Sequence record: OL615012
Reading direction: 5' to 3' (one strand)
From: Shigella phage vB_SboM_Phaginator
Length of the DNA stretch: 64,000 nucleotides
This document shows, one piece after another, positions 24,211-36,446 of this stretch. The notes beneath the pieces are model-generated. The model did no database searches. It saw nothing but the letters and a program-made list of their open reading frames with translations, and was not told where the DNA came from. A program made the position numbers and the translations under genes. Each line of letters starts with the position of its first letter. Position 1 is the stretch's first letter.

Positions 24211-24792
24211 CTAACCGAGCTTTTTAGTTAATTCATTCCAATGTTTTCTGCACAAAGAAACATAAATTTCATCACCAATACAGATTTGATTACCTTCTTT
24301 AACTGGTGTTCCATCTTCCATTAATCGAGCTGTCATAATCGCTTTTTTGCCGCAATGACAGACTGCTTTCAGTTCAATAAGTTTATCTGCAATCGCTAAA
24401 AGTTCTTTAGAACCTTCAAACAATTTTCCAGCGAAATCAGTCCTTAATCCATAAGCCATAACAGGAACATTATATGTATCAACAATTCGGCTCAATTGAT
24501 GCACTTGTTCAGTTTTTAAAAACTGAGCTTCATCTACAAATACGCAATGAATATCTTTTTGTGCTTCGGCCCATTTATAGAATTCGAAAATGTCCATATC
24601 ATCTGTAATAATATTCGCTTCCTGCTTAATTCCAATGCGAGAAACGACTTCACAGACAGAATCGCGAGTATCAATAGCAGGCTTAAGAACTAATACACCC
24701 ATTCCACGTTCTTTATAATTATGTGCAGCAGTCAAAAGAGAAGCAGATTTTCCAGCATTCATTGCTGCATAAGTAAAAATTAAACTCGCCAT
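24211..24792 (-). CDS. tk: Thymidine kinase
   Basis: 193 aa; P-loop AAMNAGKS and C-terminal zinc-binding Cys pairs; T4 Tk length. Confidence 0.9.
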   Translation of the reverse strand: MASLIFTYAAMNAGKSASLLTAAHNYKERGMGVLVLKPAIDTRDSVCEVVSRIGIKQEANIITDDMDIFEFYKWAEAQKDIHCVFVDEAQFLKTEQVHQLSRIVDTYNVPVMAYGLRTDFAGKLFEGSKELLAIADKLIELKAVCHCGKKAIMTARLMEDGTPVKEGNQICIGDEIYVSLCRKHWNELTKKLG

Positions 24793-29593: not shown

Positions 29594-30172
29594 TTAGGAA
29601 TTACGGGCTGCATTAGCAACGGCGTAAGCGTACTGGACATTAGCGTCTTTAAACGTACCTTTAGAGGTATCTATTTCTGCCTTAAAGCCGCCTTTAGCCA
29701 TAACATCGGCAAATTCTTTACGGAAAGCCATTGCATCAAGACCTTTCCATGATGATTTATGCTTGGCAAATTCAAGACCAGCGTAGTTGACAGCCTTAGC
29801 TAATTTATTATCAATAACCCATTTACCGGCTTTAGGCACAAACTTCGGGCCTTTTTGTTTAGAGAACAGTTTTAAATTCCAGCGACGAAGGTCACTGTCG
29901 GCTTTAACAAAAGCTGCGTCTAAGTTACTAGCAACAACATCTTCAATATGAGCAAATTTAAGTCCGTCAACTTCAATATTTAGATCGTTACGCCAGCGAA
30001 GTCCTTCCCAAGCGAAGGCTTTAAAGTCGGAAGCCTTTGTAGCTAAGTACCGTTCAATAGGAGCTGTTTTAGGGTCAAAGCCGTTTCCCGATCGGTAGGT
30101 CCACTCATCTTTATTAATGCCTTTGGCCTTTACTATAGAAGCTTCGGCAATAAATTCTTGATAGGTTTTCAT
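29594..30172 (-). CDS. ipIII: Internal head protein with capsid targeting sequence (IPIII-like)
   Basis: 192 aa; N-terminus MKTYQEFIAEA, the T4 internal-protein capsid targeting sequence with LxE-type protease site; early promoter upstream. Confidence 0.65.
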   Translation of the reverse strand: MKTYQEFIAEASIVKAKGINKDEWTYRSGNGFDPKTAPIERYLATKASDFKAFAWEGLRWRNDLNIEVDGLKFAHIEDVVASNLDAAFVKADSDLRRWNLKLFSKQKGPKFVPKAGKWVIDNKLAKAVNYAGLEFAKHKSSWKGLDAMAFRKEFADVMAKGGFKAEIDTSKGTFKDANVQYAYAVANAARNS

Positions 30173-30233: not shown

Positions 30234-30494
30234 TTAAGCTTTACCGCCAGAAATAATTCCGAAGTTGTTAAAATCATATCCAATATCGTCAACATCTACT
30301 TTAGGACTTGCTACAGCATAAGCAATTTCACTACGTTTTGCACAGGTGTTGATTTCTTTACCATCGCCACCTAAGAAAGAATACCCATTACGTTTTAATG
30401 AGCCAAAGTCTTCCGCATCACCAATGAAAGCTTTAACTTTAAATTTAGAACCTTTGGCATCTGCTTCAACGATAAATTCTTGATACATTTTCAT
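30234..30494 (-). CDS. Internal head protein with capsid targeting sequence (IPII-position)
   Basis: 86 aa; N-terminus MKMYQEFIVEA. Confidence 0.6.
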   Translation of the reverse strand: MKMYQEFIVEADAKGSKFKVKAFIGDAEDFGSLKRNGYSFLGGDGKEINTCAKRSEIAYAVASPKVDVDDIGYDFNNFGIISGGKA

Positions 30495-30662: not shown

Positions 30663-31465
<803 letters not shown>

Positions 31466-31921
31466 TTAAAAGAGGCTGTTCATTATTCGGTAAAGTGAAG
31501 GACCCATCACATATTGCCACTGAGTACGAGGAATAAGAGCAAAAGCATCCATCTCTGGAATCATAACACCATCTTTATTTTCAAAATAAGACTCGCAATG
31601 GCAATTTCTAAACATCTCATGCTCTACTGGAATCGTATAATAAAACAGCTGTAAGTCTTTATTACTAGAATATTTAAATACACCTAGGTCTTCTAGAAGG
31701 TCTGGATTATAATTGCTAAAACCGGTCTCTTCTAAGCATTCTCTTCGTGCTGCATCTAGTGCGCTCAAATCAGAATTTTCTACACGGCCTTTTGGAATAT
31801 CCCAGCGATGTGCCATCATTCCAGGCTTACGAGAACCAGTAACCCGTCCCATGAATAAATCTTTATCTTCTGTCATAAAGATAATACCAGCTGATAATGT
31901 TTTCATTTTAATTTCCTGCAT
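31466..31921 (-). CDS. nudE: Nudix hydrolase NudE
   Basis: Nudix box GRVENSDLSALDAARRECLEETGF; alternative start at 31906 (MKTLSAG) with in-codon AGGAAA RBS. Confidence 0.8.
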   Translation of the reverse strand: MQEIKMKTLSAGIIFMTEDKDLFMGRVTGSRKPGMMAHRWDIPKGRVENSDLSALDAARRECLEETGFSNYNPDLLEDLGVFKYSSNKDLQLFYYTIPVEHEMFRNCHCESYFENKDGVMIPEMDAFALIPRTQWQYVMGPSLYRIMNSLF

Positions 31922-32391
31922 TCGGTGATAAAATTATTTAAATTTTGAGTATATTTCTTTTCATCAAAAATCTTTTGCTGCCTACGTAAACGCCATGGCA
32001 TTTCAATGAACGTGTACCATATCCCAGATAATATTGCTGCTGTAAAAATATTAACAAGTATGGTTAAAATAATCCAATCTCCCGTTCTGTCTACTGGACT
32101 TTCTCCAAAGAAGCAAAATACAAATGATGTCACAGGAAAACTAATAATATACCACAGAATCATAATCTTATCTGTGAACCAATCAGTGTTCGTTAATTTA
32201 GCGCGACCATTATGAATACACACGAATTTATCATCTGTTGCAGTAGATGGCTTAACTGGTTGATATCCCATTCTAAACTCCCTAATCAGCAAATTTTTCA
32301 TATCTTCGGAACAGCCATTCCAGTCAACTCTATCAACTGGAATGCCATCATCCCCATCATCTAAATCATACCAGCGAGTTTTTAAAATCAT
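31903..32391 (-). CDS. Hypothetical membrane protein (paralog family, C-terminal ...ECRKLK)
   Basis: 162 aa; two hydrophobic helices. Confidence 0.5.
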   Translation of the reverse strand: MILKTRWYDLDDGDDGIPVDRVDWNGCSEDMKNLLIREFRMGYQPVKPSTATDDKFVCIHNGRAKLTNTDWFTDKIMILWYIISFPVTSFVFCFFGESPVDRTGDWIILTILVNIFTAAILSGIWYTFIEMPWRLRRQQKIFDEKKYTQNLNNFITECRKLK

Positions 32392-32750
32392 TTAATTTTC
32401 CTACAATCACTCACAAACTCTTCCATTGATTCTTTTTCAATATAAGACATGTAGCTATTATATTCTTTTAATTGTATTTTGTAATCTTTTTTTCTTTGCC
32501 AATTTATTTTAAAATTATCATAATGAAAATATAACATGATACCAAAGAATGAAAATAATGAAATAATTTTAGTATAGTGAAGTTCACTCCAAACTTCTAT
32601 TATATTTACTGTGCCGTCAATGTTTAAAATAAGACAGTCAATTAACAATCCAAAAAGACTACCCGCAAGAGCTGCAGCCAACGCCACAGCAAAAATTAAA
32701 AATGACTCAGAAAGCGAATATTTGACTTTATTTAGTTTTGGCTTTTGCAT
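32388..32750 (-). CDS. Hypothetical membrane protein (paralog family, C-terminal ...DCRKIK)
   Basis: 120 aa; hydrophobic helices. Confidence 0.5.
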   Translation of the reverse strand: MQKPKLNKVKYSLSESFLIFAVALAAALAGSLFGLLIDCLILNIDGTVNIIEVWSELHYTKIISLFSFFGIMLYFHYDNFKINWQRKKDYKIQLKEYNSYMSYIEKESMEEFVSDCRKIK

Positions 32751-33124
32751 CGTGATTCCTTAACAAATTTCATAATTTCATCAAATTCATACGCAGCAAG
32801 TTTAAGCTGGTGTTCCTTTTTAATCTTTTCACACTGTGCTTTCCAATCACGTACGCGTTTACGATAATGTCTTCCTTGATACCAGTATCCTACCCAATTT
32901 ACAGGTACTAATAAAAGTGGAACTATTAATGGAAGAATTAGCATTAATACCAGTATTTCGCCAGAATCAATATCAGTCATAACATCTAAAACACCTCCAA
33001 TAATCAATAGAATTACAAATGATATGAGTATAACAGGACCTATTAATACATCAGTAGAAATTATCTGACGCTTTAATTCATACTTTAAGGGTTTACTTGG
33101 AAGATACATTGATGGCTTTGACAT
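32732..33124 (-). CDS. Hypothetical membrane protein (paralog family, C-terminal ...KFVKESRCK)
   Basis: 130 aa; hydrophobic helices. Confidence 0.5.
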   Translation of the reverse strand: MSKPSMYLPSKPLKYELKRQIISTDVLIGPVILISFVILLIIGGVLDVMTDIDSGEILVLMLILPLIVPLLLVPVNWVGYWYQGRHYRKRVRDWKAQCEKIKKEHQLKLAAYEFDEIMKFVKESRCKSQN

Positions 33125-33701
33125 ATTCTCTGCATTCCTTCACAAATTTTTCTAGTAATAAATCGCTTTCAAAATTGGGATTTTCTACGAATTTATCAAA
33201 AAGATCATCAACAATAGTTAAGATATTCTTTTTACTAAGAATACGCTTATTTTCATGCTTAGTTTCAGAATCAACTATAAGAGTAAAGAAATATTTCTTG
33301 TCCCGAAATTTTACAGTAGTATCAATATAGAATAAATTTGACTTTTGTAAATTACGTTTAAACCATGCATCACTTAAACTATAAACGCCGAGATAATCAT
33401 AATCGTCGTTTAAATAACAAACCGTCCATTCAGGAGAAACAAAATCAGTAAATTCAACGTCAAAATCGCATGTTAATAAATGAATTGATTCAATGCTGTT
33501 AATAAGTATTCCAGGACGTATTAAAGACTTTTTACCTCTAGAAAATCTTCCAGAAAGACTTTCATCAGTTTCATATGAAGAACCCCAATAATAATTACGC
33601 CCTTCTGCCATACGTTTAAGAGCATTTAATAATTGGTCTGGAACATCAACTTGTCTTTGGAACTCTTCAAACATTGAATTGAAATCACTTTGCATTTTCA
33701 T
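33093..33701 (-). CDS. Hypothetical protein (shares ...KFVKECRE... motif with downstream paralogs)
   Basis: 202 aa. Confidence 0.5.
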   Translation of the reverse strand: MKMQSDFNSMFEEFQRQVDVPDQLLNALKRMAEGRNYYWGSSYETDESLSGRFSRGKKSLIRPGILINSIESIHLLTCDFDVEFTDFVSPEWTVCYLNDDYDYLGVYSLSDAWFKRNLQKSNLFYIDTTVKFRDKKYFFTLIVDSETKHENKRILSKKNILTIVDDLFDKFVENPNFESDLLLEKFVKECREYVKAINVSSK

Positions 33702-33721
33702 TCCTACTTACTCCAAGTAAT

Positions 33722-33737
33722 AGGGGCCGAAGCCCCT
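33722..33737 (-). other. Intercistronic RNA hairpin with UUCG tetraloop
   Basis: Minus strand AGGGGC-UUCG-GCCCCU just after stop of 33743..34336; no clear U-run. Confidence 0.4.
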
Positions 33738-33742
33738 TATCA

Positions 33743-34336
33743 TTATTTCAGAGAATTAATATATTCCTGAACATCGGCAGAGGTAGTTTCAACCCCAGAA
33801 ATATTGCCATTAAAGGTTTCAACTCGGGCAAGAGTATCTTCAATATCAACCTTAGTCAGTGCTGCAATTTCAACTACATCATCGGCAGTACTAATTCCAA
33901 GGGCATTTGCCGCACGAGTTTCACGAATATATTCCAATTTAACTGCAAGTTCTTGGCGAGCATCATCTAACTCAACTACTTTCTTGGCGATTTCAATTCG
34001 CATTTCAGCATAACCGTCAGCTTTAGTAGTCAACTGCTCAGCTGTTCGGCGATATAGTAAACCGAGTTTAGCATGCATTGTTACATCTTGACCTTCGGAA
34101 AGAAGTTTTCGAATTTCACGCTCTTTTGATTCGGCCTGTCGATTCTTTTCGATAACAAGTTCACGAATACGTTTTTCTTCATTAATAGATTTAATAGAAG
34201 CAGTTTTTAGATCTTTAATTTTATCAAGTAGTTTTGCTGCTGCAGCAGTATACTGTTCTTCAACAGATAGATTTTTAGCCATAGCAGAACCAAGTTTAGT
34301 GCGAATAAACTCAACAATTTTCTTCAGTGTGTTCAT
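33743..34336 (-). CDS. Hypothetical coiled-coil protein (weak PspA/IM30-like character)
   Basis: 197 aa, long helical heptad regions; resemblance to PspA family is by eye only. Confidence 0.5.
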
Positions 34337-34393
34337 AGTATTTCCTTAGATTGATACAATTAGATAATATCACGTTTTTAATAGATTGTAAAC

Positions 34394-34729
34394 TTATTCT
34401 TCGTCTATCTCATCGATAAAGACGTCAATGGCCTCGATAACGGCATCATTGATAGCCAATAAAGTAAAATCATCGTCAGTACCTTTATAAGATTCTGAAG
34501 CATTGATATATGCTTGATTGACGAGTTCCCAAGCCTTTTTAAAATAAGGAGTTTCATCATCAGGACAAATATCCCGCACACCTTCAAAGATACGATTGGC
34601 ATAATCTAACACCCATTGTACAGGCATGTTTTGAGAACGTTCGTTAAACTCTTTAAATTCCTTAGATTCAAAAAGCTCTTCAGGATAATAATTTCGATTA
34701 CAAAAAGCTTTACTAAAGTTACGTTTCAT
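34394..34729 (-). CDS. Hypothetical acidic protein
   Basis: ORF track 111 aa; early promoter upstream (34755-34783). Confidence 0.5.
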   Translation of the reverse strand: MKRNFSKAFCNRNYYPEELFESKEFKEFNERSQNMPVQWVLDYANRIFEGVRDICPDDETPYFKKAWELVNQAYINASESYKGTDDDFTLLAINDAVIEAIDVFIDEIDEE

Positions 34730-34754
34730 AATGTTCTCCTCAAGCTACAGGCTC

Positions 34755-34783
34755 ATAATATCTCAATCATGAGCCTGTGTAAA
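34755..34783 (-). promoter_or_regulatory. Early promoter overlapping a 9-bp inverted repeat
   Basis: Minus strand GTTTACA - 17 bp - TATTAT; spacer contains CAGGCTCAT...ATGAGCCTG hairpin. Confidence 0.55.
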
Positions 34784-34784
34784 C

Positions 34785-35060
34785 TTATTTCATATTATTG
34801 AAATATTCTTCTGCGATTTCGTCGTTATCATGGTAAACTTTAGAAGACAGTTTAACATAACCTTCAGCAGTGAACATGTTAATCACAACTTTTACAGTAT
34901 ACCACTGACCGTCTTCATTACCCATTACTGCGTAAGTTTCAAACATCGGATGGTCAGGACCGATAACTTTAATATCATTCACTGTACGACCGAAATCTTC
35001 TGAAACGCATTTCATAAAGAAGTTGAACAGTTCGCCGTAATTATCCATTTCATTCTCCAA
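34785..35060 (-). CDS. Hypothetical protein
   Basis: ORF track 91 aa; early promoter upstream (35092-35120). Confidence 0.5.
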   Translation of the reverse strand: MENEMDNYGELFNFFMKCVSEDFGRTVNDIKVIGPDHPMFETYAVMGNEDGQWYTVKVVINMFTAEGYVKLSSKVYHDNDEIAEEYFNNMK

Positions 35061-35288: not shown

Positions 35289-35855
35289 TTATTTACCCAG
35301 TTTAGTTATTATAGCTTCGGCAGCAGCTTTTAGCTTAGATGCAGTGTTAATACGATTTTTAATTTCAGTATACGCATCGCCAAGAACATCAAGGCTATCT
35401 GAATAAACACTTACACTATTGCGTTCGCTATTTGAAATAGAACCTTTAGTTTTACGATCAAAATCGGTATACACGTCTTGAAGATCGCGTGCTGCCTTCT
35501 TTGCATCATCCAATGCATCAAGAGCTTTATTCAAAGCATTAACATATTTTTTAGTGTCAAACATATTCTTAGAAATTTTGACGGGTGCGCGTTCAGGAGT
35601 AGCTAAGGCAGATTTAGGAAGAACCTGTTTGCCAGATGCCAGTTTCTTAGAAATTTTAAAAAACGCTTTATTGAAATTATTTTCTTGACTCATCGTAAAA
35701 GAACTATTATCAATGTTATACATTTCAATAGCTTTAGCTTTCCACTTAAGAAAATCGCCACGGTCTTTTGGATCCAAGTGGAAGAATACTTTAGTAAGAT
35801 CTGCTTCAGATGGTAATTTTGCTGCTTCGGTTAAAAATTCGGCGTAGGTTTTCAT
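35289..35855 (-). CDS. Internal-protein-like protein with capsid targeting sequence
   Basis: 188 aa; N-terminus MKTYAEFLTEA; terminator hairpins downstream. Confidence 0.6.
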   Translation of the reverse strand: MKTYAEFLTEAAKLPSEADLTKVFFHLDPKDRGDFLKWKAKAIEMYNIDNSSFTMSQENNFNKAFFKISKKLASGKQVLPKSALATPERAPVKISKNMFDTKKYVNALNKALDALDDAKKAARDLQDVYTDFDRKTKGSISNSERNSVSVYSDSLDVLGDAYTEIKNRINTASKLKAAAEAIITKLGK

Positions 35856-35972: not shown

Positions 35973-36446
35973 TTATTTAATTTGCTTAGCAGACCAAATG
36001 CGGTCTTTGATAATTTTTTGGATGTCTTCAACATATTCAAGAGAGTGAACATGTGGGTTATCTTTGAAACTATAAGCACGAGCTAGCTTTTGGCCTTCGG
36101 TTTTGATTACTAAAAGCTCTTTAAGGATAGCTTCATATTTGGAGATAATTCCTTTAACAATATTTTTCTCTTGTGCGACTTTAGGATCTGCTTTAGGAGC
36201 AGGTTTACCTGAAGCCTTTGCAAAAGCAGCTCCAGTAGCAACTAAACTTTTCCAGGCCATACTAACTGCATTCCCTGTAAATCCTTCCGCTTTCATATCG
36301 CGAGCAAATTGGAATCGTGATTCATCGGAAGCATCTTTATAGGAATATTTACCCGCGGCAATGGCAGCTTTTGCAACAGCTTGAATTTCGGTGCTAGATG
36401 CTTCATTTAACACCGCTTCATTTAAAAATTGAGCATATGATTTCAT
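35973..36446 (-). CDS. Internal-protein-like protein with capsid targeting sequence
   Basis: 157 aa; N-terminus MKSYAQFLNEAVLNEA; TATAAATA late promoter upstream; flanked by a 31-bp direct repeat. Confidence 0.6.
   Translation of the reverse strand: MKSYAQFLNEAVLNEASSTEIQAVAKAAIAAGKYSYKDASDESRFQFARDMKAEGFTGNAVSMAWKSLVATGAAFAKASGKPAPKADPKVAQEKNIVKGIISKYEAILKELLVIKTEGQKLARAYSFKDNPHVHSLEYVEDIQKIIKDRIWSAKQIK

Follow-up and report, generated by a model that had tools for sequence, protein, structure and literature searches.

Introduction

Why should four consecutive genes of a phage end with closely related residues? The question is raised by a stretch of 64,000 nucleotides (nt) from Shigella phage vB_SboM_Phaginator (sequence record OL615012; hereafter, the window), in which the minus strand encodes, one after the other, the orthologues of the genes e.5, e.4, e.3 and e.2 of phage T4, preceded by that of e.6. 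A first inspection made from the letters of the DNA, referred to here as the sequence-only reading, had noticed the related C-terminal motifs of these four products, and the C-termini do read as it gave them (Table 1). T4 is the best-studied virulent phage, and about half of its genes are without a function, e.2 to e.6 being among them.

What appears to be new in the present analysis is a C-terminal tail selected as protein and shared by at least four kinds of protein body, its tight clustering with e.6, and the PspA/Vipp1 nature of the e.6 product. The open reading frames (ORFs) as such were already known as T4 hypothetical proteins and from the recent Pfam entries PF26873 and PF26876. None of the annotations of T4 e.2-e.5 that we examined mentions a shared tail, and literature searches on these genes and on any connection of T4 with PspA returned nothing relevant and no description of the tail superfamily.

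A conserved tail at the C-terminus

About 20 residues long, the tail lies at the C-terminus, where a further 1-15 mostly basic residues usually follow it, and its carriers are a set of proteins specific to T4-like phages; the tail-motif superfamily was defined in this analysis by the pattern Φ-x-x-F-[IV]-x-x-C-[RK] within the last ~22 residues. Numbered from the F (position 0), the consensus has L, I, F or V at -3 (91 of the 123 distinct tails), I or V at +1, often K at +2 and E at +3, and R or K at +5. Position +4 is occupied by Cys in 100 of the 123 and otherwise by V, I or M, as in e.4 orthologues. Since these positions follow an i, i+3, i+4, i+7 spacing, L, F, I/V and C would lie on one face of a helix. 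The e.4 tail of the window is a permuted variant, FVKESRC, and e.4 orthologues carry FVKEIRC, FIKEVR or FVKEVRRK.

The motif is not due to chance. A strict form of it, [FW][IVL]xxC[RK] within the last 20 residues, is present in three of the 111 non-overlapping ORFs of the window (e.2, e.3 and e.5), against an expectation of 0.044 and a maximum of two in 2000 rounds of residue shuffling. A loose match, YVSLCRK, in a 193-residue ORF of thymidine-kinase size at 24211-24792 was isolated and was judged to be a chance one.

The comparison covered the syntenic regions of Mosigvirus (JK42, JS09), Gaprivervirus (SP18), Dhakavirus (dhabil), Klebsiella phage TNG87, Kanagawavirus, Moonvirus, Kagamiyamavirus, Biquartavirus (Aeromonas phage 44RR), Pseudotevenvirus, Bragavirus and a Morganella phage, plus 40 IMG/VR loci anchored on e.6, and yielded a sample of 149 nucleotide-distinct tails from more than 10 genera. 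Across genera, the tail is retained where the remaining protein is only 20-50% identical or unrelated, examples being RFIAECREYAKG, TFIKECKS, EFIKYCRERVQK, AWIRSCRK, VELFVDYCRRTASKK and MFIAKCRAK, all but the first standing immediately before the stop codon.

Selection on the peptide and overlap with the next gene

The close packing of these genes suggests a trivial explanation, in which the motif would be the mere translation of a cassette of Shine-Dalgarno (SD) sequence, spacer and start codon kept for translational coupling, and the peptide would have no function. Consecutive genes do overlap at all four junctions, by 32 nt from e.5 to e.4, by 19 nt from e.4 to e.3, through ATGA from e.3 to e.2, and again through ATGA from e.2 to nudE if the latter starts at its second ATG, at 31906, as in older annotations and as is likely. 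In e.2 and e.3, the R-K codons read AGGAAA, which serves as the SD of the following gene and precedes its ATG by 5 nt, and in e.4 and e.5 an SD-like AAGGAA in the K-E codons precedes the Cys position. The sequence-only reading, according to which all the genes are coupled by ATGA overlaps with AGGAAA inside the CRK codons, was therefore right about the overlaps as such and about the SD of e.2 and e.3, but ATGA is limited to e.3-e.2 (and to e.2-nudE with the ATG at 31906), and e.4 and e.5 use AAGGAA. Furthermore, 103 of 142 tails overlap the next gene, and the end GAATGCTAAGGAAATAAAATG of an unrelated family finishing in WVSSSxEC, considered below, is close to the e.2 tail GAATGCAGGAAATTAAAATG.

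The same reading had pointed out that conservation might be confined to these ribosome binding site (RBS) nucleotides. Instead, the amino acids are kept while their codons vary: in the 149 tails, Arg is encoded by all six codons (AGA 49, CGT 36, AGG 20, CGC 15, CGA 11, CGG 5), Cys by both (TGT 63, TGC 58), and Phe by TTT in 96 cases and TTC in 44. The SD lies on the K-E, R-K or R-S codons depending on the gene, and wholly outside C-R-K in gene 93 of TNG87 (ending WIRSCRK); the distance from the F codon to the ATG of the next gene ranges from 11 to 46 nt in the overlapping cases; and the F, the I/V and the hydrophobic residue at -3 are all upstream of any SD. Moreover, 35 tails have no gene within 15 nt downstream, such as MFIAKCRAK in Klebsiella phage TNG87 and FVDYCRRTASKK in Aeromonas phage 44RR. 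The codon diversity, the moving SD and the unoverlapped tails together show that the tail motif is under selection as protein, the overlap with the RBS being real but secondary, and the explanation by coupling alone, already largely refuted, is hardly credible any longer.

Different bodies behind one tail

The four genes had been taken for a tandem paralogue family, and this description stands for e.3 and e.4, which are true paralogues, but not for e.5, whose body is unrelated, and it is not supported for e.2, whose similarity to e.3 is lost once the tail is removed. The profiles of e.3 and e.4 align in hhalign over 88 columns with a probability of 95% (P=3.9e-8), and still with P=3e-5 when the last 18 columns are removed, as compared with P values of 0.06-0.7 for reversed and column-shuffled controls. 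Non-circular hidden Markov model (HMM) profiles built from orthologues only match each other reciprocally and are colinear over the full length, and e.3 weakly matches PHROG 2604, the family of e.4 (E=0.004). At the level of profile comparison, this demonstrates that e.3 and e.4 arose by duplication. The alignment of e.2 with e.3 reaches P 1e-4 with the tail and P 0.1 without it, with an e.2 profile of two sequences and hence of low power, and e.2 would resemble the others solely via its tail and its architecture.

In the case of e.5, only the ~24 columns of the C-terminal tail align with e.3, and the body belongs to a soluble family of its own, encoded immediately after e.6 in at least nine genera. 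The same tail is also present in a family of small soluble proteins of 83-116 amino acids (aa), with ends such as LESFIQMCRGNQNVS and KLFLEYCRSSIQV. Judged from their sequences, the tail is thus demonstrably carried by at least four bodies between which no similarity is detectable: the soluble e.5 type, the e.3/e.4 type with two transmembrane (TM) spans, e.2, and the small soluble proteins.

Nature has also recombined two of these bodies. Protein P0098 of phage vB_EcoM-UFV05 (106 aa) is an in-frame fusion of residues 1-31 of e.4 with the C-terminal half of e.2, joined inside TM1 (LIGPV|TSFVF), with loss of the rest of e.4, of all e.3 and of the N-terminal domain of e.2. It carries two precomputed Pfam families, PF26873 and PF26896, and shows that the e.4 and e.2 bodies are at least topologically interchangeable.

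Membrane topology and the variable parts of e.4 and e.2

Hydropathy and charge bear out clearly for e.2 and e.4, and less so for e.3, the claim that the first three genes encode two-helix membrane proteins. Both e.2 and e.4 have two clear hydrophobic spans, with basic flanks and an acidic loop, which by the positive-inside rule predicts an N-in/C-in topology, and e.3 has one clear span plus a shorter one of 16 uncharged residues that aligns with TM2 of e.4. In e.2, the two spans stand between an N-terminal soluble domain of ~75 aa and the tail FITECRKLK, and in e.4 a basic juxtamembrane stretch and a cytoplasmic helix are predicted before the tail. In the membrane members, the tail would then be cytoplasmic.

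Among 89 homologues of e.4, the tail is the most conserved part (0.07 bits per column), and variability is greatest in the periplasmic loop (1.09) and in TM1 (0.74). These two are hypervariable even among relatives otherwise more than 85% identical, in which the cytoplasmic N-terminus and the tail are nearly invariant, and some homologues (e.g., P0087) have a wholly different TM1/loop segment. This variability is compatible with diversifying selection or cassette exchange acting on what would be the periplasmic side.

The e.2 gene is intact in the window, encoding 162 aa, whereas in the T4 reference (NC_000866, locus L002 4470-4961; 102 aa) it is split by two frameshifts, a 1-nt deletion and, ~100 nt later, a 1-nt insertion (-1 then +1), which leave the loop and TM2 out of frame and lead to a stop. 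The 160-nt 'intergenic' stretch before nudE in T4 is a remnant of e.2 and still encodes FITECRKLK and its stop in the original frame. In a subset of the relatives, e.2 is divergent or missing (matches begin at query position 486).

Instead of e.2, Mosig-, Gapriver-, Dhaka-, Kanagawa- and Moonviruses have three to five tandem genes for small soluble proteins of 65-101 aa. All of these proteins finish with G-x-W-[VI]-S-S-S-x-x-C directly before the stop codon, which is usually part of TAAGGAA, a combination of the stop with the SD of the next gene; they form a second tandem family with a conserved C-terminus, its final residue being Cys.

The neighbouring gene e.6 is a divergent PspA/IM30/Vipp1 homologue

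The gene e.6 is far more conserved than e.2-e.5, being present in 1106 phage records at identities down to 25%. The AlphaFold2 model of its product, built from an alignment of 32 sequences, has a mean predicted local distance difference test (pLDDT) score of 78.9 and consists of a helix alpha0 (2-21), a long hairpin (24-79 and 85-144) and two short C-terminal helices. In a Foldseek search against the PDB, the top eight matches of this model were all Vipp1 or PspA structures (probability 1.0, template modelling scores of 0.46-0.57), with the archaeal ESCRT-III protein CdvB2 lower down. The Pfam family PF04012 (PspA_IM30) matches five of 31 divergent members of the e.6 family, with a best E of 8.9e-10, the e.6 of the window remaining below threshold. 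The family profile matches Vipp1 from the PDB (E 1.8e-4, residues 1-146 aligned to 1-147) and, in hhalign, E. coli PspA (P 1.8e-4, residues 1-59 aligned to 1-59). A HMMER scan of 1.84 billion representative proteins retrieved only 45 relatives, all of ~200 aa. On the basis of the predicted fold, the structural matches, Pfam and the profile match, e.6 is a divergent homologue of PspA/IM30/Vipp1, which belong to the ESCRT-III superfamily; our literature searches found no paper reporting e.6 as PspA- or Vipp1-like.

It is around this gene that the tails are found. In the 40 IMG/VR loci, a relaxed tail pattern is met in 143 of 493 ORFs (29%) within 6 kb downstream of e.6, as compared with 14 of 497 (3%) upstream; the first ORF after e.6 bears a tail in 36 of the 40, and the tail proteins number from one to six per genome. 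They are concentrated in a run of co-directional, mostly overlapping genes just downstream of e.6, in a region, between e.6 and the lysozyme gene e, where gene content is highly variable among the compared loci. In Pseudotevenvirus, the ORF after e.6 has EKFIHSCKK 25 residues from its end, and in Bragavirus two ORFs ending in YIEQCRE and YIETCRK are located just upstream of e.6. The idea that the tails mimic the C-terminal helix of e.6 (EYINSLK at its very end) was dropped, as the tail HMM scores that C-terminus no higher than background.

Expression of the gene run

The annotation of T4 record L13089 places promoters in front of e.8, e.7 and e.6, and none between e.6 and nudE. The window has a sigma-70-like match upstream of e.6 and, between e.6 and e.5, a hairpin annotated as a putative stem_loop in L13089 (Table 1). 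This is a perfect GGGGC-UUCG-GCCCC structure with no strong U-tract on the coding strand, and a GC-rich stretch is also found just after the e.6 stop in SP18, TNG87 and 44RR. Its role is probably that of a partial terminator or of a stabilising element; instead of ending transcription, it may attenuate it or make the e.6 message more stable.

In time-resolved omics of T4 infection, e.2, e.3, e.4, e.5, e.6 and nudE all have early RNA, and their proteins were detected and classed as early (e.4 and e.5), middle (e.2, e.6 and nudE) or late (e.3) (PMC9697503, supplements 4 and 6). A direct holin-like role is unlikely because the RNA is early, the e.2, e.4 and e.5 proteins are early or middle, and no holin family is matched, even though the e.3 protein is late. 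The same timing is in keeping with a role at the membrane early in infection.

A possible docking helix and its alternatives

Which function would then be served by a tail of this kind? The explanation we lean to, tentatively, is that it is a cytoplasmic docking or assembly helix tying e.2-e.4 and e.5 to a common partner, plausibly e.6. The tail helix would be a docking element shared by the membrane-anchored e.2, e.3 and e.4 and the soluble e.5. These four proteins, produced early and in amounts coupled to one another, would meet at the inner membrane, binding either one partner or each other. By synteny, the adjacent PspA/Vipp1-like e.6 would be the best candidate for this partner. By analogy with PspA-PspB/C and LiaH-LiaI, the two-TM proteins may bring e.6 to the inner membrane, or arrange it there, shortly after infection, for membrane sealing or maintenance of the proton-motive force, with lysis timing affected only indirectly; on this view, the genes would work as an inner-membrane module of early infection and not as a device for late lysis. 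In e.4, the variable TM1 and periplasmic loop may be turned towards membrane components specific to the host or to the phage.

Several observations weigh against this docking model. What would link e.6 to the tails is synteny, and a stable hairpin separates e.6 from e.5. Searches of e.2, e.3 and e.4 against the PspB, PspC and LiaI families (Pfam, NCBIfam, E<=0.1) gave no match. Since e.2 is broken in T4 and absent in many relatives, it must be dispensable. What follows e.6 in two large Aeromonas phages, L051 and L052, is only a variant F[IV]xYC[IV] with no basic residue. The hydrophobic moments of the four window tails (0.40-0.49) are not significant singly (shuffle P 0.05-0.22), and a plain helix-face role does not account for why Cys is so strongly preferred to other hydrophobic residues. 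Finally, the AlphaFold2 model of e.5 is of low confidence (pLDDT 62) and does not distinguish a free tail helix from a core-packed one; the model is weak because the alignment is shallow, the homologue search having returned close relatives only, as it also did for e.4.

A bolder version of the docking model, which we consider rather doubtful, would make of these genes a phage module of the PspA/ESCRT-III type, where an e.6 polymer is recruited, nucleated or capped by variable tail adaptors. The adaptors, e.2-e.5 and their relatives, would all plug in through the F-[IV]-x-x-C-R helix. The task of the module would be to reseal the inner membrane or make it more stable, both after injection and in the course of a prolonged infection, and so to set the time at which the holin can fire.

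The tails could also bind each other, so that e.2-e.5 would form a hetero-oligomeric inner-membrane complex held by a bundle of C-terminal helices, possibly with the Cys residues in its core as a shared metal or redox site, and with a function independent of e.6. Gene overlap and coupling are typical where subunits are produced in fixed proportions, and the single tail per chain, its hydrophobic face, the prevalence of Cys and the occurrence of three to six tail proteins per genome would all fit. We give this reading only a modest chance, since membership varies (e.2 lost, e.3 deleted in the e.4::e.2 fusion, one to six members), which is unusual for an obligate complex, and since many e.4 orthologues have V, I or M in place of the Cys. 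Nor does it seem likely to us that the two-TM proteins are independent early effectors, acting in superinfection exclusion like Imm and Sp, as holin- or antiholin-like proteins or in anti-defence, with the tail being just a conserved structural end and e.5 functionally unrelated. Their small size, predicted N-in/C-in topology with a charged cytoplasmic C-terminus, early expression and location near the endolysin gene speak for such effectors, as does the hypervariable TM1 and loop of e.4, expected of a surface in host-phage conflict. However, the presence of the same tail on soluble proteins (e.5 and the small soluble family) would be left unexplained, and scans of Pfam, PHROG and PADLOC gave no similarity to holin, Imm, Sp or defence families; moreover, a holin (T) and two antiholins (RI and RIII) are already known in T4.

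Two further explanations concern the tail as a label or as DNA. As a tag for proteases or chaperones (ClpXP, FtsH, Lon), it would restrict how long a set of early proteins persists, or deliver them to a common factor for quality control or insertion. The motif does end 1-5 residues from the C-terminus in 92 of the 149 tails, it mixes hydrophobic and basic residues, and all its carriers are early genes, but the 11-21 residues that follow it in the e.5 family and the 25 in Pseudotevenvirus would be poorly tolerated by a terminal degron, no testable likeness to known degrons is seen, and we regard such a tag as quite improbable. The tail DNA together with its RBS could instead act as a recombination linker, which would allow cassettes to be shuffled in this hyperplastic region while keeping the coupling, a role compatible with a function of the protein. 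It would account for the same tail on unrelated bodies, for the highly variable gene content from e.6 to e, and for the near-identical strings of ~17 nt shared in the window by the e.5 and e.4 tails and by the e.3 and e.2 tails, and a natural e.4::e.2 recombinant does exist. That recombinant was joined inside TM1 and not at the tails, though, and across genera it is the peptide that is conserved and not the nucleotide sequence, which makes the linker unlikely in our view.

The interest of these results is that five anonymous T4 ORFs become one testable unit, defined by a tail common to a soluble and several membrane proteins, by selection at the protein level across more than 10 genera and by a PspA/Vipp1-like neighbour. 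Should the tails dock onto e.6, there would be a phage-borne membrane system of the ESCRT-III type with modular adaptors, which would bear on old questions about T-even phages, namely how the envelope is resealed once the genome has been injected and how the membrane stays energised up to lysis. Should they not, the motif of 6-8 residues would still be a handle toward a common partner.

Genomic context and other features

The window belongs to a Tequatrovirus. Over the segment 31400-34400, it shares 98.5% identity with Escherichia phage vB_Eco_T-01, and identities to T4-like phages are 90-96% in hundreds of cases. The four minus-strand ORFs were assigned as orthologues of e.2, e.3, e.4 and e.5 by comparison with the T4 reference and with the T4 record L13089, the identities being 109/120 aa for e.3, 118/130 for e.4 and 188/202 for e.5 (90-93%). 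In T4, these genes, formerly named msp7, msp6, msp5 and msp4 (UniProt P32273, P32274, P39222 and P39223, respectively), have the same order and overlaps as in the window and are annotated as conserved hypothetical or predicted membrane proteins. They are flanked downstream by nudE and then by the lysozyme gene e, and upstream by e.6; the gene after lysozyme has an ATGA overlap with the lysozyme gene. The plus-strand ORFs of the region are short and annotated in no relative, and an Rfam scan of 30800-35000 found no RNA family. The coordinates of the features are collected in Table 1.

Table 1. Features of the e.6-nudE region. Coordinates refer to the window, except in the last row, where they refer to the compared loci named; aa, amino acids; nt, nucleotides; SD, Shine-Dalgarno sequence; TM, transmembrane.
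Feature	Coordinates	Strand	Remarks
e.5 orthologue	33093..33701	-	202 aa; soluble protein; C-terminal helix with tail FVKECREY; end EKFVKECREYVKAINVSSK
e.5 tail codons FVKECRE	33126..33146	-	SD-like AAGGAA in K-E codons; e.4 ATG 1 nt past the motif
e.5 extension of 11 residues after the tail	overlaps e.4 start	-	
e.4 orthologue	32732..33124	-	130 aa; predicted two-TM inner-membrane protein; tail FVKESRCK; end MKFVKESRCKSQN; PHROG 2604
e.4 tail codons FVKESRCK	32744..32767	-	SD AAGGAA in K-E codons; e.3 ATG inside R-C codons
e.3 orthologue	32388..32750	-	120 aa; probable two-TM paralogue of e.4; end EEFVSDCRKIK; PHROG 2330
e.3 tail codons FVSDCRK	32397..32417	-	AGGAAA (R-K codons) also SD for e.2; ATGA overlap
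e.2 orthologue, intact	31903..32391	-	162 aa; end NNFITECRKLK; PHROG 2203
e.2 tail codons FITECRK	31912..31932	-	AGGAAA (R-K codons) also SD for the ATG at 31906
nudE (Nudix hydrolase)	31466..31921	-	final gene of the overlapping chain; Pfam NUDIX E=1e-13
e.6	33743..34336	-	197 aa; conserved upstream neighbour; PspA/IM30/Vipp1-like; candidate partner of the tails
GC-rich hairpin GGGGCUUCGGCCCC, UUCG loop	33722..33737	-	between e.6 and e.5; putative stem_loop in L13089
Sigma-70-like promoter match	34364..34392	-	upstream of e.6; TTTACA-17-TATTAT with TG
Tandem small-gene loci replacing e.2	L006 5290-6084; L007 3691-4959; L010 6022-7266; L011 6210-7276; L012 6578-7346		

In the family libraries, e.3 matches PHROG 2330 with E 1.3e-59 and e.4 matches PHROG 2604 with E 2.2e-70, and the precomputed Pfam assignments place PF26873 on e.4 homologues and PF26876, a recent entry, on e.5 homologues. 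Scans of e.2-e.5 against Pfam, NCBIfam, PADLOC and PDB sequences gave nothing meaningful, and none of the PHROG families has a named function. The GenBank names 'sulfurtransferase', for e.3/e.4 homologues, and 'host specificity protein', for e.6, were rejected, being unsupported by the Pfam, NCBIfam and PHROG scans. Among the names that isolated records give to these genes are 'DNA primase', 'terminase small subunit' and 'phosphoserine phosphatase', equally unsupported by the same scans. All such names look like propagated errors.

On both sides of the e.x block, five minus-strand ORFs (29594-30172, 30234-30494, 30663-30959, 35289-35855 and 35973-36446) have the capsid-targeting N-terminus MK[TMS]Y[QSA][EQ]F[IL]xE[AS], which indicates that the internal-protein gene set of the window is larger than, and different from, that of T4.

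Comparison with known systems

The capsid-targeting sequence of the T4 internal proteins (MKTYxEF[IL]xE[AS]) has a core F-[IL]-x-E reminiscent of the tail and is encoded in the same genome region. It is, however, N-terminal and lacks the Cys-Arg pair, and the tail HMM gives ~4 bits on those N-termini, which is noise level, so the likeness was treated as a coincidence.

With class II holins, the membrane members share two predicted TM spans in N-in/C-in orientation, a charged C-terminus, a small size and a location near the endolysin gene. Contrary to these holins, they have early RNA (with a late e.3 protein), are nearly twice as long, and match no holin family in Pfam or PHROG. Imm and Sp of T4 are likewise small, early, phage-encoded inner-membrane proteins, to which e.2-e.4 have no sequence relationship detectable in Pfam or PHROG.

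A further comparison is provided by the PspA and LiaH systems. PspA works with the membrane partners PspB and PspC, and LiaH with the two-TM anchor LiaI. Contrary to those systems, e.2-e.4 have no sequence similarity to PspB, PspC or LiaI, the module is phage-encoded and expressed early in lytic infection, and, to our knowledge, no tail motif shared among the partners is known from Psp or Lia. What the phage genes do have in common with PspA-PspB/PspC of E. coli and LiaH-LiaI of Bacillus subtilis is their layout, in which a PspA-type protein, e.6, is followed by small inner-membrane proteins with predicted cytoplasmic tails.

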